DNA from: Geosiphon pyriformis uo1 | Lineage: Eukaryota; Fungi; Glomeromycota | NCBI GenBank assembly: GCA_016748015.1 | Contig: JAAOMT010000211.1 | Location: forward strand, 54,248-118,247 | Length of the DNA stretch: 64,000 nucleotides | Direction of reading: 5' to 3' | Shown: positions 8,379-36,917 of the stretch, in pieces | How the letters are laid out: each line of letters opens with the position of its first letter | Numbering within the stretch: the first letter of the stretch is position 1 | The notes under the pieces: model-generated | What the model saw: only the letters and a program-made list of their open reading frames with translations | Databases searched by the model: none | What the model was told of the DNA's origin: nothing | Program-made: the position numbers and the translations under genes

Positions 8379-9363
8379 TATTATCAGACGAAATTAGAGA
8401 TATTATTTAGCATAAAATTATCTTTATAATTTTTATCATTAATTAGCATATACTATTGTTTCAAATTATCACTTATTATATTAGCAAAATATCCGAAATT
8501 ATTATTTAATTAATAACCCAATTTGTACATAACACAAATGTAATCTAATTGTGATGATCAATCATGCAATACCCCGAAATATGTAATATTCAAAAGTTTG
8601 CCAAAATTTGTAGAAATTCACCGAAATAATTGATAGTTCACCAAAATATCTAATAGTTCGTAGAAATAACTTGTAGTTCACCAAAATGTATCTTTAGTTC
8701 AGTAAAATTGTAGAAAAGAGCAAAGTTTAAGTTCATAGAATAGTATTATGACAAGTTGTATAAAAGAAGAGCTTCTCTCTTCGAGAAAATGTATCTTACT
8801 TCAGATTTAATAATTAGAACCATTCTTTATACAAAAAAACAAAATAAATATCAAATAAATTCGAAAAGCCAAATTCTTAATTATTTTCTTTGAAATTAAC
8901 CAATTCCTACTAACAGTTTAAAATTGATTAGCTACCAATTTCAGTACACTGTTAAAGCACTTCTAGGCCTGGATCTGAAATGACTTCCAGAAATTATCAG
9001 TTTTACTTTCTCTTTTACATTTTTTTCATTCTCTTTCTTTTCTTATTATAAATTATTTGGGTAGTCTACAGATGAGAATTCTTGTAGAAGAGTTGACTTT
9101 CACAGCAAAGTAACTACACATTTTTAGTGAGCTTCCAGATGAGCAATTCCTGGGAAAAAGTTAACATTTCCTACAATGTAACTATACAAAGTAACTGGCA
9201 CAGAATTGGCTATTCCACTTATAAGCCCAGTAGTTCAAATTATAAGAGATAATTTGAAGATAAATTCAGTTATCGGAGGTTCAAACACTTCCCATAATCG
9301 TGAATTAACAGTATTACAACAAACATACAAGAGCTAAGAAGAGACCAAAAACCTCCAGTAATA
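8379..9363 (+). repeat. 5' LTR of copy B
   Basis: Direct repeat of 17262-18238; followed by TTTGGTGCTC. Confidence 0.95.
8597..8765 (+). promoter_or_regulatory. U3 array of TTC-N3-GAA-like sites followed by a TATA box (TATAAAA 8759-8765)
   Basis: Sites start at 8597, 8607, 8617, 8637, 8657, 8677 and 8698; GTTGTATAAAA is conserved in all family-1 LTRs. Confidence 0.6.
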
Positions 9364-9381
9364 TTTGGTGCTCTTCCACAG
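9364..9381 (+). other. primer binding site (tRNA not identified)
   Basis: TT-TGGTGCTCT.. directly after the LTR, complementary to a tRNA ending ..GAGCACCA; same motif at 19803 and at 33049 (minus). Confidence 0.85.
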
Positions 9382-9407
9382 AAACAATACAGCAAAACAA
9401 CTTCAAA

Positions 9408-12400
9408 GTGGCAACCACACCAGATGCAACAACTCTAGAGTATTACCAATCAATTTACACCCACTGCAAACAAAAATTCAACATTCCAGACGAAATTGAA
9501 GTTGTTAAGAAATCAGTATACCAATACATTGAAAACTGTATCAACAATTATCTTTTTGGAAATTACAATATCTCAGAAGTTAGAAGCAACCTTTACAATA
9601 ATTTAGTACACTATTCACAGTTGGGAACTGAAGACCTTAATAGTGAAACACCTGCCACTTACTTTCAAGAACTTAATTTTAACATTATCAAATACTGTGA
9701 AGAAACATATCCAGTACAGTCTCAATACTCTATTAATTTTAAATCAGAGACAGAAACAAGCAACAAAGACAAACAAAAATTGAAGCAATACTCAAAAACC
9801 ACCCCAAATATCCCAATATTACCAAAAACAACTGCCAAACACTTACAAACACCTGAACAAAGAACCAGTTCAAAACTTCTACTTACTATCACACCTTTTC
9901 TAGCTTCACTTGCACAAGCACAAACACCTAATTCACCCTTAAATTGATTTGCAAGACTAGAAGATTTTACATCATCCAGAAGTCTTATTAGACAACAAGA
10001 ACCCCTTCAAACTAGTTCCAATCTTCTTGACTTTCTAGCTGAAAATTGAAGTGAACACTCTGAGACAGCAGTAAATGAAGAAAACGACTCTGAAGTATCC
10101 AAAGAAGAATCAATAAACAGTAAAAACAAAGAAGACAAAATGACAGCATATATCACAAAAATCCCTGAATTCAATGGAGAAGACATTGAGACCAGTCTCC
10201 AAGAATGGCTCGACCAAATTACTAAAGCTGGAGATGCAAATAGATGGAATGCTGCCAGAATGTTAAGAACAATTCCCTACTTTCTTAAAAGAACAGCAGG
10301 CGAATAGTTTGAAAACTTGACCACCCTTTTTAATGACTGGACAGCTTTCAAAACTGCTTTCTTAGAACAATTCACTGATAACAACACTTCAATCACTCTT
10401 TGAAATCATTTTCACAATATTAAACAAGAACCTTCTAAATCTGTTATGACTTATATTGAGAAATTCAACAAACTTCTCAGACAAATTTGCCAACTTGAAA
10501 CTAATAATTATTATTCTGATGCTCAAATCTTGGATCAATTCATCACTGGTTTAAAAGATAAACTGATTAAAAAGGTTCGCTCACATGCCTCAGAAGATTT
10601 AAACTCTGCCATTCAGCATGCAAAGAGATATAAAATGGCCATGGAAAAAGCCAATCATACAAAACTCGTAAACTTGGCCATTGAAGAAACCAGCTCAGTA
10701 GCTGAAGAGAAAATTGACCAACTCGCAAAAAAAGTCGAAAACTATTTCACCAACCAACAACAACAGCAACCCCAAAGATATCAATCACTCCAAAGACGAA
10801 ATCAAAACAACTTCACATCACCCTTTAATAACCAGTCTTAGAGTTGCCATTACTATAGAATTTCTGGCCACTGGAAAAAAAATTGCAGAAAGCTACAACA
10901 AGACCAACAAAATAGGAGTAATCAACGTTATCCTCCACCATAGCAATCTTATTATCAACCACCATCAGCTTACTATCCACCAAAGCCCCAATATTAAAGT
11001 AACTATTATCAGTTTGCCCCACAGCCAATCCAACAGCAATACCAACAACCACCCATACAACATTATCAAGTACCTGCTTGAAAATTGATTCTGCAAAATC
11101 AATTCACACCACAAAACCAATACCAAGTAAACAACAATAGGATTATTTTAAACAACCAATTAGTTCCCCAAAATTCAGCTCAACCAAGACCCAACCACTA
11201 TCATACTCAACCTAGTTATCTTATGATGCTAGAAGAGCAGAATTTTTACCATACTGCACTCTCAGAAAGTAGAGCTGCAGCACAATGACAAAACTCTTCC
11301 TATATTCCTACCACAATCTCACCAGCCAAAATTGCTGAAAATGCCAACCTTTCAGATATATTTCCTTTTGAATTTGAAGCAAATGAATCACCATTCTTGC
11401 TTAGCAATGCAGCGGCTAATGAGCAAAAAGCCATCACTGCAATGTACACAGAAGCTGAAGTAGAAGAAAAGCCAATTCGCTTGATTCTAAACAGTGGATC
11501 CGCCAAAAGTATTATTACACATCAATTGATGCAACAGCTAAAAAGAAACATTGACCGACCAGCTCAGACAATCATTGTCACTACTGATGGCATGAAAAAG
11601 ACTCCAGTAGGAGAGATTGACAACTTCCCATTCACAATTGATGGAATCATTATTCCAGTCAAAGTTCTGGTCATGGATGCTCCCCAATACCAAGCTCTTG
11701 TCAGAAACAATTGGCTCCAAAAAGCCAATGCTAATCTGAATTGGGAGACACAAGAGTTAACAATCTCCTACCAAAGACAACACGTCTGAGTATCTGCCAC
11801 GTGTGGTACATTCAACAAACACTCTGAAAAAGCCCTGGCTTTTGAATTCGAACCAGAAGAAGAAAAACCTATCATTGAAACATTTATGGCACTTGGATCA
11901 ACCTCCAATTGGGCTGATGAAACTGAACAACAGTATTTTTCAACATATAATTCCCTTGAAACAAAAGAACTAGTAACACCCAGATGGAATGTTTCCTATT
12001 CAAAACCAGAACCACAAAAACAACGCTCTTATATTTCACTCAAATGCAAAAATTGTCACAAGAAACTCTTATCAATAGGAGCCTGCATTTCATCTGAAAA
12101 AGAATATGAAAATCATACTTGTTATTATTGCAAGGCTTGCCACAGAGAACGATGGAGCCATCTAATAAAAAGAAGTGAAAAATGGGACAACACCTCTTGT
12201 TTGACTTGTGGAAATATGCTACCAGAAGAATGCAATTGGATTGATGTAGCAATGAGAGGAGAAGTCTGTAATCAGACCTGCCAATATGCTTTATCAATTT
12301 CAGAAAAAGTCAAAAAAAGAACACCTTTTAATGTGGCATACAACAGTGCTTTCAACAAACTTTATCACTACCCCCATGATGCTAAAATAATTTTTGACCT

Positions 12401-15038
12401 AGCAATGACATTAATTAATAGAGCTACCAAAGAAGATGTCTGTCAAATAAAGGAAGCAGAATATATTGAATATACATTGGAATTAGCTGAATTTGATTAT
12501 GAAGATGAAGTAGAAGTATACCATAAAATCGCAAGTTATACCTACTCGATCCAAGAAGCTCAAATTCAATGATTAGAGCAAATGAACATTAAATTATGTA
12601 AGGAGTGTATAATGCCATACGACAAACAATGGTGTCCTGAATGCTATGTCCTTAGCATTCCATTACCCAGTAAAAGTAACAAATATAAAATCAAATTTGG
12701 TGAATCTGAAGCAACAGAAGAAATTAAAACAACACCCATCTATCTTATCAAAAATCAGCCTGCTTCACAACTCAAATACTTCAACAACAATGGACAAGGA
12801 ATAAAGTCTGAAAAAGCCCACGAATTTGATGCTGAATACGATCTAAGATATCCAGGAAAAGATATCCTTACTCTCAAATCTAAATTGTTTACAAAAATCA
12901 ACCTCAAAATTGCCCTTGAAATTCCACCAGAGGCAATGGTCCAAATCGCTTCACAATCATCATTGGCGAGCAAAAAAATTAATGTTAGAAGAGGAATCAT
13001 AGATGTGGAATATACAGGAGACATTACAATCATGTTACAAAATGAAACCAATAAACCTTTTCAAATTGAACATGCCAAAAAAATTGTTCAAGCTATTTAT
13101 TTACCCTTAATCAACATTTCGGGTTTATAATTAGTCAATCAAAGAGAACTATTGGGAAAAAATGAAAGAGAAACCCAAGGTTTTGGTTCAACTAGATAAT
13201 TCACAGTTCCAGTAAACATAGCCCTTAATGAACAGAAAGAATCTCACCAGATTTTACGACTTCCACAACCAATTACCATTTCACCCTTTGGAGAACACTC
13301 TGAAATTTACATTTGTGGAAAGCCAACAACCACACAACAAATTTTTGAGTCCAACGAACAAATCTGCTTGGAATATAATATCTCGATTCCAAACATTTAT
13401 ATTCCAGAAGGAACAAAAAAAATCCGAGTTACTTTTTACAATCCCAACAATTTCCCCATAGTTTTATTAAATAACTTAGAAATTGGAGTTATTCACAGTA
13501 ATATCTTTTAACAAGAATTACCCCAAACAGTTCCCAATTTCTCAGAAATCATTAAACATTTACTACCAAAAATCAACCCAAATCCCAGTTCTGAGAACTA
13601 CCATGTTGTCATAGAAAAACTATTTTGAATCAACATGAGACAACTTGAACCACAATAACAGAGCCAGCTCAAAGAGCTAATTGCAGAATTTGCTGATATT
13701 TTTGCTAAAAACAACAATGACTTAGGAAGAACTGATGTGGTTCAACACCAAATCTATACAGGAAATGCCAAACCAAAGTGACAACAAGCCTACTGAGTTG
13801 TCCCAGAAAGTCACCAATTTATCCAAGAAGAAGTACAACAAATGCTTAACAATGGGCTTATTCAACCATTAATAAGTCTATGGGCCTCACTTGTAATCCT
13901 AGTTAAGAAGAAAAATGGAAAGATATGATTTTGTGTTGATTATTGACAACTCAACAGTGTCACTATTAGAGATCCCTACTCTCTTCCCCGAATCAATAAC
14001 ATGTTAAATGCTCTTGGAAAATCCAAATACTTTTCAACACTAGATCTAAAAAGCGAATACTGGCAAGTTGCCATGGATTCCAAAGATCATCCCAAAACAG
14101 CATTCACCACTCAAAAAGGAAATTATGAGTTCAACGTAATGCCTTTTGGATTATGCAATGCACCAGCAACATTCCAAAGACTTATGGATGTTGTTTACAA
14201 AGGCCTCTTTTGGAAATCAGTAGTTGTCTATCTTGATGATACTGATGTTTATTCACCATTTTTTGAATTACACTTAAAACACTTGCGCGAAGTTTTTCAA
14301 CAATTATGGAAAGCAGGATTGAAACTGAACATCAAAAAATGCTACTTTGGAAAAACGAGTCTGGCCTTTTTTGGTCACATTGTTAGCAAAAATAGAATTA
14401 AACCAGACCCCAGAAAAATCAGCACTGTCAAGAACTTTAAGACTCCACAAAATATCACAGAATTGAGAGGATTTATTGGATTAGCATTCTATTACCAAAA
14501 ATTCATCAAAAGATTCTCAAAAATCGCAAAACCCCTCAACCAGCTTACTACTAAAAACGTCAAATACAAATGGATAGAAGAACACCAAAAAGCTTTTGAA
14601 ATTCTCAAAGAAAAGCTAACAACAGCTCCAATTTTTGCCTATCCAGACTTCAATAACCGATTTTGACTAGCTACAAACGGTTCTTACACTGCCTTTGGTG
14701 CCATCTTATCACAATTAGATGACAACAGAAATGAGCGAGTAATTGCTTATGCTAGTAGAACATTAAAACCAGCCGAGAAAAACTACCCTGCCACAGAACT
14801 AGAAACAGCAGCCGTAATTTGGGCCCTACACTACTTTAATCTTTACCTCAAACCCAAAGAATTCGATATTATCATTGATAATATTGGACTCAAATGGCTT
14901 CAAAACAAAAACACTCAGCTGAATACCAAACAAATCTGATGGACAGGATTTTTAGCCAACTACTGATACATTGTACATCACAAACCAGGAAAACTCCACA
15001 CCAATGTTAATTGTCTCTCAAGAATGAGACAAGATTAG
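9408..15038 (+). pseudogene. Gag-PR-Cys-rich-dUTPase-RT-RNaseH polyprotein of copy B
   Basis: Capsid-like KIPEFNGED/ILDQFITGL, decayed CCHC knuckle, protease IL(N/D)SGSA, RT MPFGLCNAPATFQ and YLDD, RNaseH; many premature stops. Confidence 0.93.
12770..13197 (+). pseudogene. dut: dUTPase domain within pol of copy B
   Basis: Motifs across copies: AGYDL, ASRSSLA, GGVIDAGYTGDI, KIAQ, RGTQGFGST. Confidence 0.92.
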
Positions 15039-15084
15039 AACATAAAAACAACACTCATTTGAATTAACAACAAAACAACAAACA

Positions 15085-16453
15085 ATGAATCCCAAAAACT
15101 ACAACAATCTTAAAACAATATCTGGAGACATTAACAATCCCAACAGATTGGTCCTCAGATGAAAAACATTGGTTACAACAACAAGCCAAACAATACTTCT
15201 TACACAACAACATTATTTATTATCAAAACTTCAGAAACCCAGACAATTCACTCAGATTAATACAAAAACATGAAAAAGAAACCATTTTATATAATATGTA
15301 CTCAGACCTTTCATCAGCACACCTAGAAAAAGACAGCACTACCCAGAGAACACTAGAATATTATTTTTGGTCTCAAATAAGAAAAGACATTCATGAATAC
15401 ATTAAGGTTTGTGATAGTTGTCAAAAAAAAGGAGGAACTCACCCTACAGAACCTTTAAATCCAATCAAAGTTAGACAGCCTTTTGACTAAGTTGGTATCG
15501 ATTTAATCGAACCACTCCTTATTACAAACCAAAAAAACTGTTATATTACAGTAGCTGTAGACTATCTTACCAAATGGCCTGAAGCCAGAGCCATTCAACG
15601 AGCAGATGTAAAATCAGTAACAAATTTCATCTATGAAGACATTATTTGTAGACATAGATGCCCAATAGAACTTTTATCTGATCAAGAAACACATTTCATA
15701 AACAATTTAATCCAAAAAATTTGTGGATGATTTAATGTCAAGAGACCATTATCTTCATCCTACCATCTACAAACAAATAGACTTGTAGAATGTTTCATTA
15801 GCCAAAGTCTCAACTGATTTTGAGCAAGAATGAGATCTCTTTATTTCATCAGTGTTACTAGCATATAGAACACTAAAACAAGATACCACAAAACACACAC
15901 CATTTGATTTAACTTATGAAAGAACACAGCAATATTATCAATTAGTTTCACTGTGGAAACATACCCAACACAATCAATTGATAAAAACAATTTCCAGGAA
16001 ACACTACAATGAAGAGCCTACACTCTGCTTAGCATGTTGAAAGAAAAACAACAAATAGCAGCCACCCACATTAAACACTCCCAAGCTCAACAAAAAAAAT
16101 GACATAACAACAAATTGTCTTCAGTTACCAATAGATTTAAAATTGAAAACAAAGTTCTTTTATACAAAACTAAAGCTGAAAAACAATGGAGTGGAAAATT
16201 TGAAAATAAATAGAATAGACCATTTTTTATCCATGAAATCCTAGACAACAGATCATACAAGCTAAGACTTGATGACAAAATCCTAGCAAAAGTTGCACAT
16301 AGAGATCGTTTGAAACACTATAATTCTAGAAACAATTCTGAATCATTAATTCCATAAATTGGTACACATTCCTCTTTAATCAATCCCGAAGATATTCCCC
16401 AAAATTTAAAACCAATAGTTGTCATTGAACAACCTCTCAACTTGAACACTTAA
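15085..16453 (+). pseudogene. integrase of copy B
   Basis: ATG AAT CCC AAA AAC TAC start; HHCC and DDE relics; ends ..LNLNT*. Confidence 0.9.
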
Positions 16454-16573
16454 TTTAAATTTATTATTATAGTTATTTTCTTATAATTTAGAAACAATCA
16501 CAAAAACAAAACAAAAATAACATAAAAACCCATACACCAAAAATAATTTTCTTTTATTTTCAAATCTCATATA

Positions 16574-17293
16574 ATGACTATTCCTCAAAACATTCAATAA
16601 TTATTCCAAAAACTAATGCTAGCTTTAAAGACAATATCCAAATTATCCATTACTGTTACTAAAAACCATATTAATTATACCCAAACAGAAGTAGTTACAA
16701 ATTTAGCCCCAAATGCACATAAATATTATCTGTATAAGAGGAACACAAGAAGTTCTTCTGGAATTCATCTGCCAGAACTTTTAAAGCTTGCTTTAAGAGA
16801 AAACTTAATGCTCACTCCTATTAGTATTCCACCAAATGCTACTATTCAACAAAAACTTCAACTGTGTCTTAATGAAGAAAACTACGACTATACTCCAATA
16901 TATAGATATTTCTACATTGGAAAAACATTTCACAAACAAAAACGGAAGCTTACAGCAGCAAACCTCACAAAAAAAGCTATTCTGAAACAACTCCACAACG
17001 AATTCAAGACAACAGCTGGACCTACAAACAGTCATTATAAACTAAGAGCTGCTCTTAGACTTTATGATCTATTCTACATCTGTGAAAATGTTCTACAAAA
17101 CCCAATTTTACAGCCTTTGAAGATTTAATACATTGGAAAGCTCACAGAACTGAAATTTTAACAATTTTCAGACCAAATTTCTTCAATAATTTTGGATTAT
17201 TATCTGGAAATTACAGACAATACTTGGACTTTGATGGAGCTCAGTCTTGAGGAGAAGGTTATGTTACCAGACAAAATTAGAGATATTATTTAG
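16574..17293 (+). pseudogene. accessory ORF3 of copy B
   Basis: MTIPQNIQ..MLALKT..YRYFYIGK..HYKLRAALRLYDLF; homologous to ORF3 of A. Confidence 0.82.
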
Positions 17294-18238
17294 CATGAAA
17301 TTATTTTTATAATTTCTATCATTAATTAGCATATACTATCATTTCAAATTATTACTTATTATATTAGCAAAATATTCGAAATTATTATTTAATTAATAAC
17401 CCAATTTGTACATAACACAAATGTAACCTAATTGTGATGATCAATCATGCAATACCCCGAAATATGTAACATTCAAAAGTTTGCTGAAATTTGTAGAAAT
17501 TTGCCAAAATAATTGATAGTTCACTAAAATATCTAATAGTTTGCAGAAATAACTTGTAGTTTGCTAAAATGTATCTTTAGTTCAGTAAAATTGTAGAAAA
17601 GAGCAAAGTTTAAGTTCATAGAATAGTGTTATAACAAGTTGTATAAAAGAAGAGCTTCTCTCTTCGAGAAAATGTATCTTACTTCAGATTTAATAATTAG
17701 AACTATCCTTTATACAAAAAAACAAAATAAATATCAAATAAATTCAAATTTTTAATTATTTCCCTTGAAATTAACCAATTCCTACTAACAGTTTGAAATT
17801 GATTAGCTACCAATTTCAGTAGACTGTTAAAGCACTTTCAGGCCTGGATCCAAAACAACTTCCAGAAATCATCAGTTTTATTTTCTCTTTTACATTTTTT
17901 TTATTTTCTTTCTTTTCTTATTATAAATTATTTGAGTAGTCTACAGACGAGAATTCCTGTAGAAGAGTTAACTTTCACAGCAAAGTAACTACACATTTTT
18001 AGTGAGCTTCCAGATGAGCAATTCCTGGAAAAAAGTTGACATTTACTACAACATAACTATACAAAGTAACTGGCACAGAATTGGCCATTTCACTTATAAG
18101 TCCAGCAGTTCAAATTATAAGAGATAATTTGAAGATAAATTCAGTTATCAGAGGTTCAAACACTTCCCATAATCGTGAATTAACAGCATTACAACAAACA
18201 TACAAGAGCTAAGAAGAGACCAAAAACCTCCAGTAACA
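17262..18238 (+). repeat. 3' LTR of copy B
   Basis: PPT GAGGAGAAGG upstream; TGTTACCAG...CCAGTAACA; followed by TSD ATGG. Confidence 0.95.
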
Positions 18239-19802: not shown

Positions 19803-19847
19803 TTTGGTGCTCTCCCACAAAAATAACACAGCAACAACAAATTCAAA

Positions 19848-22800
19848 GTGGTGACCACACCAAACACAACAACTTTAGAGTATTATCAGTCAATCTACAC
19901 ACACTGCAAGCAAAGATTTAACATCCAAAATGGAATTGAAATTTTCAAGAAATCACTATACTAATACATTGAAAATCATATCAACAACTATTTTTTTGAA
20001 AACTACAACATTTCAGAAGTTAGAAACAACCTCTACAATAATTTAGTATACTATTTACAATTAGAAAAAGAAGACCTGAACAGTAAAATACTTGCTACTT
20101 ATTTTCAAGAACTTAATTTTAACATTATTGAGTATTGTAAAAAAAAATACCCAGTACAGTCTCAATACTCTATTGATTTTGAATCAGAGACAAAAACAAA
20201 CAACAAAGGCAAACAAAAATTGAAGCAATACTCAAAAACCACTCCAAACACTTTAATACTACAAAAAACAACTGCCAAACACTTAAACAAGGAACCAGTA
20301 TTAAATTACCACTTTCTATTACACCATTTTCAATTTCACTTGCTTAATCACAAACACCAAGTTCACTATTTAATCATTTCTCTAGACCAAAAGATTTCAG
20401 TTACCTAGAAATTCTACTTAACAGAACAAACCAATATTAATAAGTGCTAATATTATTGATTACTTACAGAAAAACGAAAGAAATCATTCAGAGAGTCTGG
20501 AAAGTGAAGAAACTGAATCAGAACAAGAAAAAACTACAGAAAACAAAGAAATGGCAACTGCTTATATTGCAAAGATTTCAGAATTTACTGGTGAAAATAA
20601 TAATACCAGTCCTTAAGAATGGCTTGACATAGTTCAAAAAACAGGAGATGCAAATGGTTGGACTGCAGCAAGAATGCTCAAAGCAATCCTATACTTCCTC
20701 CAAGGAACTGCAGAAGAATGATTTGAAAATTTAGGAGAACCATTTGAAAACTGGCAAGCATTCAAAGATGCTTTTCTACAACAATTTACTGACAACAACA
20801 CATCCATTACTTTTTGTAATTGCTTTCACAATATCAAACAAGAAACATCTGAAACTGTTATAATTTATCTGGAAAGATTCAACAAACTTCTTCAACAAAT
20901 TTGACAATTGGAAACCAATGAATACTATTCTGATGCCCAGATTCTGGATCAGTTTATAGCAGGATTAAAGAACAAATTAATCAAGAAAGTTTGCCCACAT
21001 GCACCAGAAAACTTAGCAACAGTCATTAAACATACAAAAAACTATGAAATGGCTATGGAAGAAGCAAATCACACCAAATTTGTCAGCCTAGCTATTGGAG
21101 AAACCAGTTCAATAGCTGAAGAGAAGATAAACCAACTCACAAAAAAGGTTGAAAGCTACTTCACAAACTAACAACAACAGCAATAACAACCACAAAAATA
21201 TCAACCTCCACAATGATACAACCAAAACAATATTGAATTACCATCTAACAACCAACCTCAAAATTGTTATTATTGTGGAATTCTAGGACATTGGAAACGA
21301 GATTGTAAGAAATTACAAAGAGACCAACAAAACAAGAGTAATCAGCATTATTCGTTATCACAAAAATCTTATTATCAATCTCCACCACCAACTTATTATC
21401 CACCAAGACCACAAAATTAAAACAGTTATTATCAACCAGCCCCACAACCAATTCAGCAACAATACCAGCAATCTTTACCCACTCAGCAATATCAAACACC
21501 ATCCACTCAACAATATCAAGTACCAACCAGAAGATTGGTTTAACATAATCAATTCACACTCCAAAATCAATTTCAGAGTAACAACAACAGAATCAATCCA
21601 AATAATTAGTTGGTTTCTCGAAATTCTGATCAGCAAAGACCCAATTACTATTACACTTAACCCAGTTACCTTACAATGCCTAAAGAATCGAATTTTTAAC
21701 AACCTGCACTTTTTGAAGGTAAAGTTGCAGCACCAAGATCAAACTCTTCCAACAATACTATTTCATCAGCCCAAATTGCCCAAAATGCCAATCTTTCAGA
21801 TATATTTCCATTCGAATTTGAAGCAAATGAATCACCATTCTTGCTTAGTAATGCAGCAGCTAATGAACAAAAAGCTATTACTGTCATATACACTAAAGCT
21901 ACAGTAGAAGAAAAACCCATCCGATTAATTTTAAACTGTGGATCAGCTGAAAGTATTATTACCTACCAGTTAATGCAACAGCTTCAAAGAACTGTTGACA
22001 AACCAGCCCAAACTGTAATTGTTACAGCAAATGGTATGAAAAAAACACCAGTAAGAGAAATTGACAATTTCTCATTTACTATTGATGAAATCACCATTTT
22101 AATCAAAGTTTTAGTCATAAATGCATCTCAATACCAAGCTCTGGTCAAAAATGATTGGCTTCTTAAGGCCAATGTAAACTTGGACTGAAAAACTCAAGAA
22201 TTAAAAATCTCATACCAAGGACAATACACCATAGTATCTGCTATTTGTGAAACTTTCAACAAACAATCAGAAAAAGCCCCAGTATTTGAATTTGAAAAGG
22301 AGAAAGAAATGCCACTCACTGAAACCTACATGGCTCTTGGATCAACATCTAATTGGGTTGAGGAAACAAAACAAGAGATTTTTGAAAAATCAAAAGGATA
22401 GAAGAAAGTTAGATATTCCACACCAGAACCACAAAAAAAACCACCATATATTCCACTAAAATACAAAGATTGCAAAAAAAAGCTTTTATCTATAGGAGCC
22501 ATATTTCTTCAGAAGAGAAATATGAAACTTGCACTTGCTACTTCTGCAAAGCATGCCATAGAGAACGATTTGAATCTCCAAAGAGAAGTAGAAAATGAGA
22601 CAACATATCTTGTCTCACATGTAGAGATATGCTACCAGAAAAATGCAACTGGATTGATGTTGCAATGAGAGGAGAAGTATGTGATCAAACCTGTCAATAT
22701 GCTCTATCAATTTCGAAAAAAGTTAGAAGAGAAACACCATTTGATGCAACATACAACAGTGCTCTTAATAAACTTTACTACTATCCTTATGATGCTGAAA

Positions 22801-24170
22801 TGATCTTTGATTTAGCAATAGCTTTAATTAATAGAGCCACACAGGAAGATGTCCACCAAATAAAAGAAGCTGAGTATATTGAATACACAATAGAATTAGC
22901 CAGATTTAACTATAAAGATGAGGTAGAAACATATCACCAAATTGCAAGCCACACATATCCAACACAAGAAGCTCAAATTCAACAATTAAAGCAAATGAAC
23001 ATTTAATTGTGTGAAAAATGCATCATGCCTTGTGATGACAAATGGTGTCCAGAATGTTATGCTCTTAGCATTCCTCTGCTCAGTGAAAATAACCAAGAAG
23101 AAATCAAATTTGGGAAACCTGAAACAAAGAAAGAAATCACAACAACACTAAGCTATCTTATTGAAAACCAGCCCACTATACAACTCAAATACTTTGACAA
23201 CAATGGGCAAAGAATAAAACCAGAAAAAGCCCACAAAATTAATGCCAGATATGACCTCAGATATCTTGGCAAAGACACTTTGGTTCTCCAACCAAAGTCC
23301 TTGACAAAAATCAATCTTAAAATTGCTCTTGAAATTCCACTTAGAGCAATGATTCAAATTGCATTCAGATCATCATTGGCAAGCAAAAGAATCAATATTA
23401 GAGGAGGAGTCATAGATGCAGAATATACTGAAGACATTACCATCATGTTACAGAATGAAACAGACAAACCATTTAGGATTGAACATGCTGAGAAAATTGC
23501 CCAAGCAATTTACCTACCCTTAATCAACATTTCGGGTTTACAATCAGTAAAGAACAGAGAACAAGAGGAAAAAAGTGAAAGAGGAACTCAAAGTTTTGGT
23601 TCAATTGGACAATTTACAGTGCCAGTAAACATAGCTCTCAATGCACAAAATAAATCTCACCAGATTCTTCAACTTCCTCAACCAATTACCATTTCACTTT
23701 TTGGAGAACATCATGGAATTTACACCTGCTCAAAACCCATCACTACCCAACAAATCTTTGAATCCAATGAACAAATCTGTTTGAAGCATGAAATCTCAAT
23801 TCTAAACATTTATATTCCTAAAGGAATGAAAAAATTTTGAGTTATATTCTACAACCTCAACAATTACCCTATTGTCTTATTAAATGAATTAGAAATTGGA
23901 ATCATATATAATAACATTTTCCAAAATGAAAACCCTTAAATTGTCTCTAATTTCATCGAAATTATAAGACATACTCTACTTCCAAATCCAAACACCATTC
24001 CTACTACTAAAAACTACTTTTTGGAAGAAAAACTCTCTCGAATTAACATGGGTCCCTTAGAATCCCAACAACAAAGACAATTAAAACAGCTAATAGCTGA
24101 ATTTGCAGATATTTTTGCAAAGAACAATAATGACCTTGGAAAAACTGATATTGTTCAATATCAGATCCAC
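19848..24170 (+). pseudogene. gag-PR-Cys-rich-dUTPase part of copy C
   Basis: CYYCGILGHWKRDC knuckle, protease, dUTPase in ORF 23007-23840. Confidence 0.92.
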
Positions 24171-25131
24171 TGTTACCAGAGGTTTTTGGTCTCTTTTCTT
24201 GAATGTTGTTAATGCTTGTTTTGCTGTGAATTCACGTTTCCAGGAAGTAGTTGAACTTCCAATAACTGAATTTATCTTCAAATTATCTCTTATAATTTGA
24301 ACTGCTGGGCTTATAAGTGGAATGGCCAATTTCGTGCCAGTTACTTTGTGTAGTTACGTTGTAGTAAATGTCAACTTTTTCCCAGGAATTGCTCATTTGG
24401 AAGCTCACTAAAATGTGTAGTTACTTTGCTGTGAAAGTCAACTCTTCTACAGGAATCTCGTCTGTAGACTACCCTAATAATTATAATAAAAAAAATAAAA
24501 AAATAAAAAAAATGTAAAAAAAATGTAAAAAAAATAGGATTTTATCAAGAGAAACGTTTTCTATCCAGGCCTGGAGTCACTAACAGTTTATTGAAATTAG
24601 TAGCTAATCAATTTCAAAACGTTAGTTGTGTTGAGAGAATTTCAAGTGTAATAATTTAAGAATTTTGTTTTTCGAATATTTAATTTTTATTTGATTTTGT
24701 AAAAAGTGATTTGTTTCAATTAAGACATTTAAAGTAAGATACTATGGTAAGATACTATGAGAAGATACATTTTCTTGAAGAGAGAAGCTCTTCTTTTATA
24801 CAACTTGTTGTAGTACTAGTCTTTGAACTTGCACTTTTCTCTTTGCTACAATTTGGGTGAACTAAAGATACATTTCGGCAAATTTACAAGTTATTTCACT
24901 GAACTATTGATTATTTCGGCGAATTTTAACTATGTTAAATGGTTCAGGGTATTGTGTAATTTGATCATCTTAATTTCTAGAGTACAAATCGGATTATTGA
25001 TTGAGTAATGATATTTGATAATTTGGCTAATTTAATAAGTAATAATCGAAATAATAATAATATGCTAATTAATAATAAGAATTATGAAGATAATTTCGTG
25101 CTAATTAATAGCTAAAATTCCACTGATAACA
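24171..25131 (-). repeat. 3' LTR of copy D
   Basis: Adjacent PPT (GAAGAGGAGA on the minus strand). Confidence 0.94.
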
Positions 25132-25819
25132 TAATCTCCTCTTCAAGACTGAGCTCTGTCGAAGTCCAAGCACTATTTGTCATGTTAAGATAGTGGTCCA
25201 AAATAATTGAAGTAATCTGGTCTGAAAATTGTTGAAATTTCAGTTCTGTGAGCTTTCCAATGTATTGAATCTTTATTGGATGGAGTATTGGATTTTGTAG
25301 AACGTTTTCACAAGTATTGAATAAATCATAGAATCTAAATGCTGCTCTAAGTTTGTAGCAAGTGTTTGTTGATCCAGCTGTTGTCTTAAATTCATTGTGA
25401 ATTTGTTTTTGTATAGCCTCAGGAGTGATGTTGGTTGCTTCAAGCTCCAGTTTTCATTCATAAAGTGTTTTTCTAATATGAAAATATATATATATAAGAA
25501 TATGTTCATTGTTCTGTTTATTGAGGAATAGTAGAAGTTTTTGTTGCATTGTGGTATTTGGTAAAATGTCAATAGGGGCCATTAAAAGGTTTTTTTTTAG
25601 TGCTTGCTTCAAAAGTTCTGGTAACCTATTTCCAAAATGACTTCTTGTTTTTTTTCTATAAGGGTGATAGTTTTGAGAATTATTTACTATTAGGGCTGTG
25701 GTTTCTTTCTGAATGTAATTAATTTGACTTCCATTAATCATTATGGATAAGTCAGGAAGTGTTTTCAAAGCTAACATTAATTTTTGGGATATTTGTTGAA
25801 TATTTCGGGAAATAATCAT
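25112..25819 (-). pseudogene. accessory ORF3 of copy D
   Basis: MIISRNIQQISQKLMLALKTLPDL..; near-identical to ORF3 of C. Confidence 0.82.
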
Positions 25820-25986
25820 GATAAAAATGACTAACAAAAAGTTTGAAAAAGAATAAAGAAAATTGTTTTTTGGATATAGGGTTTTTATTTGTTTTTGGTT
25901 TTTAAATGTTTCTTTGTAATTATTTACTGTTTTTGATTTATGTTTTGTGAGTTATTAAAAAAAGATTATTGTAAAATTATGTTGAA

Positions 25987-27372
25987 TTAAGTGTTCAAGT
26001 TTGGCTGTTGTTCTATTATAATTATTGGTTCTAAATTTTGGAGAATATCTTCAGGTTTAACTAAAAGGGAATGTGTACCAATTTGTGAAATAAATAATTC
26101 AGGATTGTTTCTAAAGTAATAGTGTTTCAATCTATCTCCATGTGCAACTTTTGCTAGTATTTTGTCATCAAGTCTTAACTTATATGATCCATTGCCTAGA
26201 ATTTCGTGAATATAAAATGGTCCATCCCATTTGTTTTCAAATTTTCCACTCCATTGTTTTTCAGCCTTAGTTCTGTGTAAGAGAACTTTATTTCCAACTT
26301 TAAATTTGTTGGTTATGAATGGTAGTTTGTTGTTATGTCTTTCTTTTTGTTGAGCTTGGGAATGTTTAATATGAATTGCTGCTGTCCTTTTTTTTCCTTT
26401 CAGTGTATTAAGAAGAGTGTAGGCCCTTCTTTGGAGTGTTTTTTGAAAGTTTTTTTCATTAATTGGTTGTACAGGGCATGTTTCTACTGTGAAATTAATT
26501 GGTAATGTTGCTGTTCTTCTATAAGTTAAATCAAATAGTGTGTGTTTCATAGTATTTTGTTTTAGTGTTCTGTATGCTAGTAACACTGATAGAATAAAGA
26601 TATCCCATTCCTGCTCAAAGTCTGTTGAGACTTTGGCTAGAGATTCACACAATGTTCTGTTAAAATGTTCTACAAGTCCATTTGTTTGAGAGTAATAAGG
26701 TAATGATAGAGGTCTTTTGACATTGAATTATTCACAAATTTTTTGTATCAAGTTGTTCACAAAATGTGTTTCTTGATCAGATAAAAGTTCAATTGGACAT
26801 CCATGTTTACAAATAATGTCTTCATAGATAAAATTTGCTATTGATTTTGCATCTGCTCTTTGAATGGCTCTAGCTTCAGGCCATTTGGTAAGACAATCTA
26901 CTGCAACTGCAATATAACCATTTCCTTGAGTTGTGATAGATAATGGTCTGACTAAATCAATTCCAACTTTGTTAAAAGGTTGTTCAACTTTGATTGAATT
27001 TAAAGGTTCTGTGGGGTGAGTTCCTTCTTTTCTTTGACAATTATCACAAGATTCTATATATTGTTAAGTGTCTTTTTGCATTTGAGGCCAAAAATAATGT
27101 TCAAAAATTCTTTGTATTGTTCCATCTCTTTCCAAGTGTGCTGAAGAAGAATCTGTGTGCATGTTGTATAAAATTGTTTCTTTTTCATTCTCTTGTACTA
27201 ATCTGAAAGATTGGTTTGGATTTTTATGATTCTTGTAATAAATTTTGTTGTGGTGTATAAAATATTGTTTGGATTGGTGTTGTAATTGATGTTTTTCACT
27301 TGAAAACCAAATTTCTGACATGGTGAGAGTCTCCAAATAGTTTTTGATGTTGTTGTAGTTTTCTGGATCCAT
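25987..27372 (-). pseudogene. integrase of copy D
   Basis: ORFs 27064-27372 and 25987-26652; KWDGPFYIHEILGNGSYKL module; no chromodomain. Confidence 0.93.
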
Positions 27373-27436
27373 TGTTGATTTTGTTATTTGTTCTGCTGTT
27401 AAGTTTGTTGGTGTTTTGTTGGTGTTAATGTTGGTA

Positions 27437-30400
27437 TTAATATTGTCTTATTCTTGAAAGGCTGTCAACATTAGTGTGTAGTTTTTCTGGTTTGTAATGC
27501 AGTCTGCTAAAAAATCATTCCATTGAGACTGTTTGGCACTTTATCTTTTTTTATTTTTATTGAGTCATTTGAGGCCAATATTGTCAGTTATGATGTCAAA
27601 TTCTTTTTCATTCTTCAGGTATTGTTGAAAGTATTTGAGGGTCCAAATAATTGCAGCAGTTTCTAGTTCTGTTGAGCCATATTTGAGTTCTGTTGGCTTG
27701 AGTGTTCTACTAGTATAGGCAATGACTTGTTCCTGGCCATTTTCATTTAATTGTAATAGAATAGCACCAAAAGCTATGTGTAAAGCATTAGTGGCTAGTT
27801 GGAACTGTTTGTTGAAATCTGGATAAGCATGAACTGGGGCTGTTGTTAATTTTGTTTTGAAGGTTTTAAAAGCTTTTTGTTGTTCTTCTGTCTATTTGTA
27901 TAGCACATTTTTGTTGATAAAATAATTGAATGGTTTGGCAATTTTTAAGAATTTTTTTATAAATTTCCGATAGTAGGAGGCTAATCCTACAAATTCTCTT
28001 AGTTTTGTGGTATTTTTGGGAGTTTGTAAGTCTTTGACAGCACTAATTGTTTTAGGGTTTGGTTTGACTCTATTTTTGCTAACTATGTGTTTAAAAAAAA
28101 TTAAGCTTGTTTTTCTAAAGTGACATTTCTCAATATTCAACTTTAATTCTGCTTTCTGTAATCATTGAAAAACTTTTTGCAGGTAAATAAAATGGGCTTC
28201 AAAGCTTGGTGAGTACACATCAGTGTCATCAAGATAAACAACTACTGATTGCCATAAGAGTCCTTCATATACAACATCCATGAGTCATTGGAATGTTGCT
28301 GGTACATTGCAGAGTCCAAAAAGCATAATATTGAACTCATAATTTCCTCCTTGGATGGTGAATGCTGTTTTGGGTCTATCTTTTGGGTCCATTTCGACTT
28401 GCCAGTATCTACTTTCTAAGTCTAAAGTTGAGAAGAACTTGGCTTTTCCTAAAGCATCTAACATGTCATCAATTCTTGGAAAAGAGTAGGCATCTCTAAT
28501 TGTGACACTATTCAATTGTTAATAATCAACACAGAATCTGATTTTTCCGTTTTCTTTTTGACAAAAACTACTGATAAGGTCCATAGACTTTTTGATAGTT
28601 AAATCAATCCGTTATTGAGCATTCTTTGGACCTCTTTTCTAATAAATTGGTGGCTAGCAAGTGGAACTCAATAGGCTTGTTGTTGTTTTGGTAAAGCATC
28701 TCTTGTATGGATTTGGTGTTGAACAATATCCGTTTTTCCAAGGTTATTGTTGTTTTTTGCAAATATATCTGCAAATTCAGCTATCAATTGTTTCAATTGT
28801 TTTTGTTGTTGGAGTTCCAAAGGACCCATGTTGATTCAAAAGAGTTTTTTTTCCAAAAGGTGGTAGTTTTCAGTGGTAAAAATGATGTTTGGATTTGGAA
28901 GTAGTGTATGTTTTATAATTTCGATGAAATTAGAGACAATTTGAGAGTTTTCATCTTGAAAAATGTTACTGTGTATGATTCCAATCTCTAGTTTGTTCAA
29001 TAAGACAATGGGGTAATTATTGGAGTTATAGAATATAACTCGAAATTTTTTCATTTCTTTGGGAATATAAATGTTTGGGATTGAGATTTCAAGCTTCAAA
29101 CAGATTTGTTCATTGGATTCAAAGATTTATTGAATGGTGGTGGGTTTTGAGCAAGTGTAAATTTCGTGATGTTCACTAAAAGGTGAAATGGTAATTGGTT
29201 GGGGAAGTTGAAAAATCTGGTAAGATTTATTCTGTATATTGAAAGCTATGTTTATTGGAACTGTAAATCATCCAGTTGAACCAAAACCTTGAGTTCCTCT
29301 TTCACTTTTTCCCAATTGTTCTCTGTTTTTAACTGATTATAACCTCGAAATGTTGATTAGGGATAGGTAAATTGCTTGGGCAATTTTCTCAGTATGTTCA
29401 ATCCTAAATGGTTTGTCTGTTTCATTTTGTAATATAATGGTAATGTCTCCAGTATATCCTGCATCTATAACATTTCCTTTAACATTGATTTTTTTGTTTG
29501 CCAATAATGATCTGGATGCAATTTGAATTATTGCTCCAGATGGAATTTCAAGAGCAATTTTGAGATTGATTTTTGTCAAAAACTTTGGTTGGAGAACCAA
29601 AGTATCTTTTCCTGGGTATTTTAAGTCATATCTAGCATCAATTTTGTGTGCTTTTTCTGGTCTAATTTCTTGGTTATGGTTGTCAAAATATTTAAGTTGT
29701 AGAGGTGGTTGCATTTTAAGAAGATAAATGAGAGTGGTTGGTAGTTCTTCTACCAGTTCAGATACTCCAAATTCGATTTCATTTTCATCATTTTCCTCTG
29801 ACAGGGGAATGCTAAGAGCATAGCATTCTGGACATCATTTGTTATCACAAGACATGATGTATTCTTCACACAATTAAATGTTTATTTGCTCTAATTGTTG
29901 AATTTAAGCTTCTTGAGTCGGATATGTGTGGCTTGCAATTTGGTAGTAGGTTTCTACTTCATCTTCATAATCAAATCCAGCTAATTTCATAGTATACTCA
30001 ATATATTCAGCTTCCTTCATTTGGCAGACATCTTCTTGGATGGCTCTATTGATCAATGCCATTACTAGGTCAAAAATCATTTCAGCATTATGAGGGTAGT
30101 GGTAAAGTTTATTGAGAGCACTGTTGTATACTGCATCAAATGGTGTTCCTCTTCTGACTTTTTCTGAAATTGATAGAGCATATTGACAGATTTGATCACA
30201 TACTCCTCCTCTCATTGCAATATCAATTCAGTTACATTCTTCTGGTAATGTATCTCCACATGTGAGGCAAGGAGTGTTGTCCCATTTTCCACTTCTTTTT
30301 GAAGATCCAAATCGTTCTCTATGGCATGCTTTGCAAAAGTAACAGGTATGAGTTTCATATTCCTCTTCTGGAAAAATACATGCTCCTATTGATGAAATTT

Positions 30401-33004
30401 TCTTGTTGCAATCTTTGCATTTAAGTAAAATATAGTGTGGTTGTTTCTATGGTTCTGATGTAGAATATCTAACTTTCTTCCATCCTCTTGATTCTTCAAA
30501 AATCTCCTGTTCTGTTTCTTTAGCCCAATTGGATGTTGATCCAAGAGCCATGTAGGTTTCAGTAAGTGGCATTTCTTTCTCCTCTTCAAATTCAAATACT
30601 GGGGCTTTTTCTGATTGTTTGTTAAAAGTACCACAAGTAGCAGGTACTATGATGTATTGTCCTTGGTATGAAATTTTTAATTTCTGAGTTTCCCAGTTTA
30701 AGTTTGCATTGGCCTTAAAAAGCCAATCATTTTCGACCAGAGCTTGGTATTGAGGTGCATCTATAACTAGAACTTTGATTGAGATGGTGATTTTATCAAT
30801 GGTGAATAAAAAATTGTCAATTTCTTCTACTGGTGTTTTTTTCATACCATCTGCTATAACAATTACAGTTTGGGCTGGTCTGTTAACAGTTCTTTGAAGC
30901 TGTTGCATTAACTGGTAGATGATAATATTTCCAGCTGATCTACTGTTTAGAATTAGTCGGATGGGTTTTTTTTCTACTGTAGCTTTAGTGTACATGGCAG
31001 TGATAGCTCTTTGTTTATTAACTGCTGCATTACTAAGCAAAGATGGTAATTCATTTGCTTCAAATTCGAATGAGAATATATCTGAAAGGTTGGCATTTTG
31101 GGCAATTTGAGCTGGTAGAATAGTGTTGTTGAAAGAGTTTGATCTGGGTGCTGCAACTTCATCTTTAGAAAATGCAGGTTGTTAAAAATCCGATTCCTCT
31201 GGTATTGTAAGATAACTGGGTTGAGTGTGATAATGATTGGGTCTTTGCTGACCAGAATTTCAGAGAACCAACTGGTTATTTGGATTAATTCTGTTGTTGT
31301 TATTCTGAAATTGATTTTGGGGTGTGAATTGGTTATGTTGAACCAATCTTCTTGCTGGTACTTGATATTGTTGAGTGGGTGATGTCTAATATGGCCGAAT
31401 TGATAAAGGTTGCTGATATTGTTGCTGTATTGGTTGTGAAGCTGGTTGATAGTAACTGTTTTAATTTTGTGGTCTTGGTGAATAATAGGTTGGTAGTGAA
31501 GATTGGTAATAAGATTGTTATGATAAAGAGTAATATTGATTACTCCTGTTTTGTTGGTCTCTTTGTAATTTCCTACAATTTTGTTTCCAGTGTCTTGAAA
31601 TTCCACAATAATAACAATTTTGAGGTTGGTTGTTGGATGGTGATCCAAAATTGTTTTGGTTGTATCATTGTGGGAGTTGATATCTTTGTGGTTGTTGTTG
31701 CTGTTGTTGTTGGTTTGTGAAGTAGCTTTCAACCTTTTTTGTAAGTTGTTTTATCTTCTTTTTAGCTGTTGAACTGGTTTTTCCAATAGCTAGGTTGACA
31801 AATTTGGTGTGGTTTGCTTCTTCCATAGCCATTTCATAGTTCTTTACATGTCTGATGGCAGTTGCTAAGTCTGTTGGTATATGTGGACAGACTTTCTTAA
31901 TCAATTTGTCTTTTAATCCTGCTATAAACTAATCCAGAATCTGTGCATTAAAATAGTAATTATTGGTTTCCAATTGTCAAATTTGTCAAAGAAGTTTGTT
32001 AACTCTCCCAAAATAGGTCATAACAGTTTCAAATGTTTCTTGTTATTAGTGAATTGTTGTAAGAAAGCATCTTTGAATGCTTGCCAGTTCTCAAATAGTT
32101 CTTTTAAATTTTCAAACCATTTTTCTGCTGTTCCTTGGAAAAAGTAAGGAATTGTTTTGAGCATTCTTGCTGCAATTCAACTATTTGCATCTCCTGCTTT
32201 TTGAACTTGGTCAAGCCATTTTTGAGGACTGATATCATTGTCTTCACTAGTGAATTCTGGAATTTTTGTGATGTAGGCAGTTGCCATTTCTTTTTTGTTT
32301 CCTGTGATTTCTTCTGGTTCTGATTCAGTTTCTTCATTTTCTAAGCTTTCTGAATGATTACTTTCGTTTTCCTGTAAGTAATCAATGATATTGGCACTTG
32401 TTGATATTGGTTCTTGTTGTTGAGTAAGATTTCTAAATGACTGAAAATCTTCTGGTCTGGAAAAATGGTTAAGTAGTAAACTTGGTGTTTTTGGTTGAAC
32501 AAGTGAAATTAGAAATAGTGTAATAGAAAGTGGTAATTTGATACTGGTTCCTTGTTCAGGTGTTTGCAAGTGTTTGGAAGTTGTCTTTAATAGTATTGGA
32601 GTATTTGACATGGTTCTTGATTATTGTTTTACTTTTTGTTTGCCTTTGTTGCTTGTCTCTGTTTCTGATTCAAAGTTAAAAGAGTATTTGGGCTGTACTG
32701 GGTATTTTTCTTTACAATATTCAATAATATTAAAATAAAGTTCTTGGAAGTAGGTAGCAAGTGTTTCACTGTTCAGGTCTTTTATTCCCAATTGTGAATA
32801 GTGCATTAAATTTTTGTAGAGGTTGCTTCTAACTTCTGAAATATTGTAGTTTCCAAAAAAATAATTGTTGATGTGATTTTCAATGTATTGGTATACTGAT
32901 TTCTTGACAACTTCAATTCCGTCTGGGATGTTGAATTTTTGCTTGCAGTAGGTGTAAATTGACTGATAATTCTTTAGAATTGTTGTGTCTGGTGTGGTCG
33001 CCAC
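27437..33004 (-). pseudogene. Gag-PR-Cys-rich-dUTPase-RT-RNaseH polyprotein of copy D
   Basis: Fragments 32621-33004, 30447-31040 (PR), 29337-29714 (dUTPase, IDAGYTGDI), 28285-28515 (RT). Confidence 0.93.
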
Positions 33005-33049
33005 TTTGAATTTGTTGTTGCTATGTTATTTCCATAAGAGAGCACCAAA

Positions 33050-34012
33050 TATTACCAGAGGTTTTTGGTCTTTTTTCTTAAATGTTGTTAATGCTTGTTT
33101 TGCTGTGAATTCACGTTTCCAGGAAGTAGTTGAACTTCCAATAACTGAATTTATCTTCAAATTATCTCCTATAATTTGAACTGCTGGGCTTATAAGTGGA
33201 ATGACCAATTCCATGCCAGTTACTTTGTGTAGTTACATTGTAGTAAATATCAACTCTTTCCCAGGAATTGCTCATCTGGAAGCTCACTAAAAATGTGTAG
33301 TTACTTTGCTGTGAAAGTCAACTCTTCTACAGGAATCTTGTCTGTAGACTACCCTAATAATTTGTAATAAAAAAATAAAAGAAAAATAAAAGAAATAAGA
33401 TTTTATCAAGAGAAACGTTTTCTATCCAGATCTGGAGTCACTAACAGTTTATTGAAATTAATAGCTAATTAATTTCAAAATGTTAGTTGTGTTGAGAGAA
33501 TTTCAAGTGTAATAATTTAAGAATTTTGTTTTTCAAATATTTAATTTTTATTTGATTTTGTAAAAAGTGATTTGTTTCAATTAAGACATTTAAAATAAGA
33601 TACTATGGTAAGATACTATGAGAAGATACATTTTCTTGAAGAGAAAAGCTCTTCTTTTATACAACTTGTTGTAGTACTAGTCTTTGAACTTGCACTTTTC
33701 TTTTTGCTACAATTTGGGTAAACTAAAGATACATTTCGGCAAATTTACAAGTTATTTCACTGAACTATTGATTATTTCGGTGAATTTTCATTAATTTCGG
33801 CAAATTTTGATTATGTTAAATAGTTCAGGGTATTGTGTAATTTGATCATCTTAATTTCTAGAGTACAAATCGGATTATTGATTAAGTAATAATGTTTGAT
33901 AATTTGGCTAATTTAATAAGTAATAATCGAAATGATAATAATATGCTAATTAATAATAGGAATTATGAAGATAATTTTGTGCTAACTAATAGCTAAAATT
34001 CCACTGGTAACA
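33050..34012 (-). repeat. 5' LTR of copy D
   Basis: Direct repeat of 24171-25131; PBS at ~33032-33049. Confidence 0.94.
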
Positions 34013-34016
34013 TCAC

Positions 34017-35300: not shown

Positions 35301-35358
35301 CATCAACAACAAAACTCACCACAATTTACCAATCTATCAACACAATAACCAAACAACA

Positions 35359-36744: not shown

Positions 36745-36917
36745 TTCAACATAATTTTACAATAATCTTTTTTTTTAATAACTCACAAAACATAAATTAA
36801 AAACAGTAAATAATTACAAAGAAACATTTAAACCCAAAAACAAATAAAAAAACCCTATACTCAAAAAATATATTTCTTTATTCTTTTCAAACTTTGTTAT
36901 TAATTAGTCATTTTATC

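Follow-up and report, generated by a model that had tools for sequence, protein, structure and literature searches.

Packaging and primer-control signals are already well mapped in the RNA leaders of retroviruses and Ty1. The MuLV leader contains the tandem hairpins SL-C and SL-D and undergoes a dimer switch (PMC5874298). A block of approximately 240 bases in the LTRs of a Geosiphon pyriformis retrotransposon resembles the SL-A to SL-D region of that leader (PMC5874298) in its predicted tandem similar hairpins in the 5' leader, in GACG within loops, in possible loop-loop contacts and in a predicted switch. It differs from MuLV in that its GACG opens a loop of 9 to 11 bases and not a tetraloop as in SL-C/SL-D, that its unit is two hairpins, located before the primer site and inside the LTR, and that it has neither palindromes of 10 to 16 bases nor a sequence match. 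The U5-IR stem of RSV is reportedly a U5 sequence with an alternative long-range partner next to the primer site. In HIV-1, the leader forms U5:AUG and LDI-BMH conformers (PMC11181671), and the Geosiphon block is similar to these in that U5 has alternative long-range partners beside the primer site. Unlike in HIV-1 and RSV, the partner in the Geosiphon LTR is the LTR terminus together with an anti-PBS sequence; the states are predicted, and there is no homology.

Ty1 Gag binds a 5' pseudoknot, and the 5' RNA domain of Ty1 contains PAL1/PAL2 and Psi (PMC8396678). Both Ty1 and the Geosiphon element are LTR retrotransposons of fungi; the 5' region of Ty1 is structured and recognised by Gag (PMC8396678), and a comparable role is proposed for the Geosiphon block. 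Ty1 differs in being of the copia type, with signals that overlap gag, without a duplicated module and with another primer. In RTBV, an AUU-started ORF I is followed by AUG-free ORFs that are reached by leaky scanning (PMC5902531). The arrangement in RTBV and CaMV (PMC5902531) is similar to that in Geosiphon in that a non-AUG ORF devoid of internal AUGs is located before the main ORF and after a structured leader. In the Geosiphon element, however, there is no short ORF before the structure, no single stem encloses it, and the non-AUG ORF (ORF0) is fused in frame to gag. The features of a caulimovirid shunt were not observed, since the copies share no ATG between TATA+45 and the block, and the fold is a row of hairpins. 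The block belongs to none of the MuLV, HIV-1 and Ty1 signal classes.

LTR elements make up 41.2% of the G. pyriformis genome (PMC11952901), and their copies thus represent a natural mutagenesis library in which covariation is testable computationally. A search of the Creative Commons literature retrieved no description of a packaging or primer-control signal in a glomeromycete element and, under non-AUG gag and LTR RNA structure in mycorrhizal fungi, nothing on this element.

RESULTS

The block resides in a Ty3/Gypsy element with four insertions in the window

We analysed a 64-kb window, namely, the whole stretch of 64,000 nucleotides of G. pyriformis DNA. The family-1 element was classified as Ty3/Gypsy because TG...CA LTRs, a target duplication, a primer site and the order protease-RT-RNase H-integrase are all present. 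The family encodes gag, protease, dUTPase, RT, RNase H and integrase, along with ORF3; for the element at 8379-18238, the Pfam matches to RNase H and integrase were taken from sister copies at 34728-35297 and 77-793. The closest named RT relatives are Rhizophagus gag-pol proteins. The LTRs are approximately 970 bases long, have TG...CA termini and carry the block near their 3' end in all seven cases. They belong to four insertions (8379-18238, 18822-38586, 34012-24171 on the minus strand, and one truncated at the window start), and 4-bp target duplications flank the LTR pairs of all three whole insertions. The minus-strand element is nested in reverse inside the same-family element at 18822-38586, between its dUTPase and RT. 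As the insertions fall into about three lineages, the seven LTRs do not correspond to seven independent observations. The flagged copy, at 24229-24468, belongs to a 3' LTR, and the copy at 33108-33348 is the one that would act in genomic RNA. The coordinates of the features are provided in Table 1.

Several other features were observed in the window. The dUTPase domain is located between protease and RT (12573-13130, 23007-23840 and 29337-29834), and a Cys-rich unannotated segment (11790-12572) lies directly 5' of it. ORF3, just before the 3' LTR (16601-17128, plus strand), has about 239 amino acids in intact gene models; of its 187 relatives, all 120 among the matches listed are from G. pyriformis, and there are two subfamilies with approximately 60% identity. 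No Pfam match was obtained for ORF3, Atlas matches did not exceed 0.77, and the predicted model was poor (pLDDT of 46). A second, older LTR family is present at 5730-6700 (plus), 40290-41360 (minus) and 39000-39600 (minus). There, a T-rich tract precedes a conserved segment that contains a terminal hairpin and a recurring ATAGC word, a layout shared with family 1; the second family showed no significant alignment with the family-1 block (179 of 300 shuffles scored as high). At 57150-59016 and 59826-62309 (minus), there are an imperfect inverted repeat of about 1.9 kb (67%) and decayed ORFs with weak RNase H matches. Changes of the C>T/G>A type dominate the whole window, including non-CpG sites, and CpG amounts to 0.21 of expectation.

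Table 1. Positions in the window of the elements, reading frames and predicted RNA features
Feature	Position	Strand	Remarks
Complete decayed element	8379..18238	+	LTR, ORF0-gag, protease, dUTPase, RT, RNase H, integrase, ORF3, LTR
3' LTR with flagged block	24171..25131	-	TG...CA; 4-bp target duplication with one mismatch
5' LTR of the same element	33050..34012	-	Block copy at 33108-33348
TATAAAA	24794..24800	-	In 7/7 LTRs; likely core promoter
AATAAA	24683..24692	-	In 7/7 LTRs, within a divergent stretch; likely poly(A) signal
Module 1, hairpin A	24447..24467	-	6 bp; loop starts with GACGAG or a decayed form
Module 1, hairpin B	24419..24443	-	4+5 bp, bulged G, 6-nt loop; followed by ACACA
Module 2, hairpin A	24380..24402	-	Loop with polymorphic AUG/ACG and CAAUUC
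Module 2, hairpin B	24352..24376	-	Followed by ACACA
Hairpin 3	24323..24339	-	4 bp; loop GAAUUG complementary to module-2 loop
Hairpin 4	24277..24301	-	Perfect and invariant 10-bp stem; variable purine loop
Hairpin 5 (local fold)	24229..24272	-	Inner stem re-paired in the 9k/18k lineage
Shared 5' arm of hairpin 5 and 12-bp long-range helix	24255..24266	-	Consensus fold
U5 terminus, 3' arm of long-range helix	24172..24183	-	Integrase end; adjoins primer site in 5' LTR
GAGACCAAA, anti-PBS	24185..24193	-	Can pair with primer site in 5' LTR; the U5 terminus then forms the loop
tRNA-type primer binding site TGGTGCTC	33040..33049	-	Also at 9364-9373 and 19803-19812
ORF0	32288..33004	-	About 240 codons, in phase with gag; begins with GTG in AAA-GTG-G
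ORF0, other elements	9408-10139, 19848-20550	+	Same frame; likely gag extension
First in-frame ATG, capsid-like gag start	32285..32287	-	At 10140 and 20551 in the other elements

The block is conserved by selection during element replication

A preliminary description had reported a block of about 240 nucleotides that is common to the seven family-1 LTRs, and this was confirmed, as the six sisters of the flagged copy are 87 to 96% identical. The statement that it is almost unchanged holds for transversions, which amount to 0 to 1.7% per 50-column window as compared to up to 13% elsewhere in the LTR, and for indels, since gaps are almost absent, but not for transitions, which reach 3 to 12% per 50 columns. 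The TATA region is conserved equally well. Between lineages, there were 1 to 3 transversions per ~203 bases of the block versus 48 to 86 per 721 to 761 other LTR bases (Fisher p of 6e-4 to 6e-9 in four between-lineage pairs). The divergence that paired LTRs accumulated after insertion was 12/205, 21/203 and 9/203 in the block and 48/773, 66/779 and 36/740 outside it. The block thus decays after insertion like the rest of the LTR. It is not a cold spot for mutation, and the host does not maintain it; low change between lineages together with ordinary decay after insertion indicates that selection acts during element replication.

Within the block, loops and linkers are as conserved as stems. 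The summed depth of run X1 peaks over the block and the TATA region, which fits a wide sharing among copies and does not represent a copy count. In run X2, three low-depth contigs were found over 33432-34013, with less than 90% identity to U3 and none covering the block.

The duplicated hairpin modules differ by changes that preserve pairing

Both modules read as described previously, i.e., as a duplicated unit of two hairpins, and the hairpin B pattern occurs 13 times versus 0.67 expected, a number reached in none of 100 shuffles. The compensatory stem changes that had been proposed are present between module 1 and module 2 but absent across the seven LTRs. The modules differ at 11 substituted positions, 7 of which are in stems, and all 7 stem changes preserve pairing (A-U to C-G, C-G to U-A, U-A to G-C and U-A to U-G, that is, three double changes and one wobble). 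Random placement of substitutions kept all pairing in 284 or 2124 of 400,000 simulations, in a comparison that represents one duplication event and whose helices were drawn from the same sequences as those tested. In the alignment of 14 modules, 95.4% of the cells were paired versus 88.3% after shuffling (0 of 500 shuffles reached this value), and the four doubly changed pairs were not above shuffles (240 of 500). Across the seven LTRs, no covariation was detected: both bases were altered in 1 of 62 pairs, and an equally high score was obtained in 499 of 500 shuffles.

The designation of the block as highly structured was an overstatement, since its folding z-score was -2.0 in sense (8 of 200 shuffles) and -1.4 in antisense. 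For the decay-reverted block, a value of -1.7 was obtained; each decay-reverted module gave -1.0 to -1.6 alone and both jointly -0.1. The outstanding folds of the decay-reverted block were hairpin 4 (z of -4.2) and the 3' domain (z of -2.7), and there were no others. Hairpin 4 had been noted as a perfect hairpin, and all its 10 pairs are indeed invariant in the seven LTRs; for hairpin 5, refolding of the 9k lineage reproduced the altered inner stem that still pairs. Of the 49 variants in run X1, 40 were listed, among which 15 had a minor allele of at least 15%; of these, 12 were unpaired, 3 kept the pair and none broke it. Seven variants in the same list break a helix, all at 12% or less. Given 94 paired among 202 positions, the loop bias had a p of 0.03 (binomial) or 0.06 (Fisher), with allele shares that are rough, being summed contig depths, and with a list from which a module-1 loop site that varies in the window is absent. 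The RNA structure of the block is thus probably real, within these limits, and run X1 provides partly independent support. As judged from one duplication and the run X1 variant table, this structure is under replication-linked selection.

The loop of module 2 contains AUG in all seven window LTRs and has C at the position of that T in 44% of the run X1 depth; both loops therefore likely began as ACGAG. Its CAAUUC is a candidate for a loop-loop contact with GAAUUG of hairpin 3, but five of the six pairs are invariant, with zero covariation, and are thus uninformative. Two further candidates were rejected. A helix between module 2 and columns 169-173 appeared compensated in two copies, but the sister LTRs lack the changes, which are thus post-insertion decay. 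A conserved peptide encoded by a module-2 uORF was discarded because its AUG is polymorphic and in a weak context and a stop at codon 17 is common.

The U5 end and the primer site may participate in alternative structures

In the consensus fold, 24255-24266 form a helix with 24172-24183, at the very end of the LTR. In the decay-reverted sequence, this is a 12-bp Watson-Crick inverted repeat with arms about 70 bases apart, whereas the longest found in 2000 shuffles had 10 bp, and 92.7% of its cells are paired across the seven copies. It extends past the approximately 8 bases that are common to both LTR ends (terminal inverted repeat). The U5 end can thus be paired by an inverted repeat beside the primer site, an arrangement of the U5-IR type. 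As its 5' arm is shared with hairpin 5, the two structures exclude each other. The minimum-energy fold of the 9k copy comprises hairpin 5 and the anti-PBS stem, and that of the 19k copy the long-range helix. For the decay-reverted sequence, the long-range state is favoured over the hairpin-5 state by approximately 8 kcal/mol, and the primer site that it releases pairs anew with the start of ORF0. An open primer site and a balanced two-state switch therefore have the status of predictions from folding models.

The block is likely in U5, within an AUG-poor leader and ahead of a probable GUG-started gag extension

The block had been assigned to R/U5. All seven LTRs carry TATAAAA and, about 110 bases downstream, AATAAA, both upstream of the block, which would imply an R of about 100 bases and a long U5. 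Judging from these motifs, U5 is favoured over R and the block is likely in U5; in full-length RNA, it would consequently occur only at the 5' end. Transcription could instead begin downstream of the T-rich tract that directly precedes the block. GTATCTT repeats, with up to four copies in one lineage, flank the TATA box (24740-24900, minus, and sister LTRs) and may be a promoter element, and a conserved ATG is found about 25 bases past TATA in the family-1 LTRs.

The leader to the gag AUG is approximately 1.4 kb long and AUG-poor. Between TATA+45 and the start of gag, there are 6, 3 and 8 ATGs in the three elements, as compared to shuffle expectations of 13.2, 13.4 and 15.0 (as few in 6, 0 and 6 of 500 shuffles), and gag past its ATG showed no such depletion. 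Twelve of the 17 leader ATGs are at sites with ACG/ACA in other copies or in run X1; three of the remaining ones are single-copy and two share one site, located 60 bases upstream of the gag ATG. Depletion reaches significance in ORF0 and not in the LTR part by itself; CAT is reduced as well, to 0.56 of expectation. ORF0, of about 243 codons, runs from past the primer site into gag with zero shared stops and almost no methionine. Its AAA-GTG-G start follows a CAA-rich stretch, upstream of which the reading phase varies between copies. In 89 gene models, the start position is occupied by Val in 67 and by Met in 11. Both AUG depletion and the AAA-GTG-G context were observed, along with one AUG that is fixed in module 2 of these lineages. 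ORF0 is likely a GUG-started N-terminal gag extension, and the simplest reading of the leader would be scanning with leaky GUG initiation, comparable to RTBV. Since an AUG-poor leader indicates scanning, it argues against the IRES-like leader suggested previously, which appears disfavoured, and it limits the stability of the block. A 35-base (or 25-base) intron over the LTR/primer-site junction (33005-33055, minus) in public gene models is likely a gene-finder artefact.

For the first 100 residues of ORF0, four confident helices were predicted, followed by a low-confidence linker rich in Thr, Pro and Glu. This model gave no clear structural match (best Z of 7.3), and viral matches had an E of 0.42 or more. 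The third-position bias of ORF0 is weak. All 103 relatives of ORF0 are G. pyriformis gene models; in a wider set of 123 representatives, the nine looked up were all from G. pyriformis, and no match was obtained in prokaryote genomes.

Relatives of the block were not detected outside the element family

A search of the window with Rfam 15 gave no match at the gathering threshold, in agreement with the proposal of an undescribed RNA; the best score of the block was an E of 0.78 (14.9 bits versus a cut-off of 50), and at an E of up to 5 only three chance snoRNA/lncRNA rows were obtained. Within the window, model R1 recovered its 14 training modules and nothing else below an E of 0.067. A pattern scan of metagenomes returned 32 loci, none of which showed similarity to the element in blastn or tblastx comparisons; R1 had four matches in them, the best of which was within a bacterial ORF. 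In viral contigs, neither an RT relative nor the hairpin-4 pattern was found.

DISCUSSION

With no Rfam match, a selection tied to replication and differences that preserve pairing, the block is best interpreted as a cis-acting RNA of an undescribed kind. Of the roles suggested previously, packaging or repeated Gag binding would fit, and nothing speaks for or against binding by ORF3. We consider it somewhat probable (roughly 0.55) that this RNA acts as a leader domain recognised by Gag in packaging and dimerisation, with the modules giving avidity and the 3' domain gating the primer site. The block would form the structured 5' leader of the genomic RNA, and its two predicted hairpin modules, arranged in tandem, would offer repeated sites for Gag binding and dimer contact. 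In the first predicted state, hairpin 5 is present and the primer site is paired with the anti-PBS; in the second, the shared arm pairs with the U5 end instead, which sets the anti-PBS free. If retroviruses and Ty1 are taken as models, this change of state may be driven by the binding of Gag and by dimerisation. The hairpins would be weak enough for ribosomes to scan through to the GUG and then to the gag AUG.

Several other explanations were considered. The block may control translation by slowing or routing scanning and thereby set the ratio of GUG-started long Gag to AUG-started Gag, perhaps with feedback repression by Gag bound to the modules. The ATG-depleted leader in front of a gag that is not depleted, the location of 12 of its 17 ATGs at ACG/ACA-polymorphic sites, the 67 Val and 11 Met at the start position of the 89 gene models, and RTBV with its non-AUG first ORF and leaky scanning via AUG-free ORFs (PMC5902531) are all in line with this role. 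We nevertheless regard it as unlikely, because depletion is significant in ORF0 and not in the LTR alone, with CAT low too, the block ends about 120 bases upstream of the GUG, the module-2 AUG is present in all seven LTRs, and a shunt needs a short ORF that stops just before the block, where there is none; furthermore, the helix to the U5 end is left unexplained. Translation control and a packaging leader are compatible and not exclusive. A role of the block as DNA, in the form of tandem palindromic sites for host transcription factors past the promoter with the hairpins as a by-product, is quite unlikely. Such DNA-binding sites would also explain the conserved unpaired bases, as loops and linkers are conserved like stems; words such as TTGAC, ACGT and ACG-x-GAATT recur in the block, and sense and antisense strands fold about equally. 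However, the double transversions between modules alter the sequence yet keep pairing, common variants are located in loops or yield G-U, and factor binding offers no simple role for a complement of 12 bp at a distance of 70 bases.

Retroelements recombine within their terminal repeats, and the block may be functionless, with template switching having spread one version of it and inverted-repeat correction having made the double changes. The comparison of only four insertions leaves room for this scenario, but the bulged G and the U-G pair remain uncorrected, variation among many copies in run X1 is biased towards loops, and both flanks keep the same lineage pattern, so that each lineage would require a double crossover at the same borders; we therefore consider it very unlikely. 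The same can be said of a coding function, either as a 37-codon uORF from the module-2 AUG or as an open frame that begins in hairpin 3, continues up to the end of the LTR and is joined to gag by a 35-base intron. The former frame is in phase with gag in five of seven copies, the latter is mostly open over about 57 codons, and about ten public gene models, as deduced from their peptides, read as spliced by such an intron. However, 35 bases is very short for an intron, the gene models use many different junctions, and the phase relative to gag varies between lineages. In addition, the module-2 AUG is ACG in 44% of the run X1 depth and has a weak context, codon 17 is a stop in 63% of that depth and in three of seven LTRs, two in-frame stops are fixed, and the common variants are mostly non-synonymous in both frames. 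Least probable of all, to a degree that we regard as extremely low, is a self-cleaving ribozyme of a new type in tandem duplicate. The compact duplicated module with its conserved loops and the word CAGACGAG/CAGAUGAG, which we take to resemble the hammerhead core word, would be in keeping with it, and a loose pattern with GAAA downstream matches five of seven copies; yet CUGANGA is absent from both strands of all seven copies, the Rfam ribozyme families were unmatched, and a cut in U5 would presumably strip the cap and R from the genomic RNA.

The packaging and primer-control leader is thus our preferred reading. A more ambitious version of it, namely, a retrovirus-grade leader that combines duplicated Gag-binding modules, a primer-site switch and a GUG-started Gag with a four-helix domain beside the AUG-started Gag, all within the 1.4-kb AUG-poor leader scanned by ribosomes, and that sorts RNA between translation and packaging, is possible but doubtful. 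If the model is true, a fungal retrotransposon would possess a compact Gag-recognition module and, likely, a GUG-initiated Gag extension. This would be a structured leader of the kind expected in retroelements and may be primarily of specialist interest.
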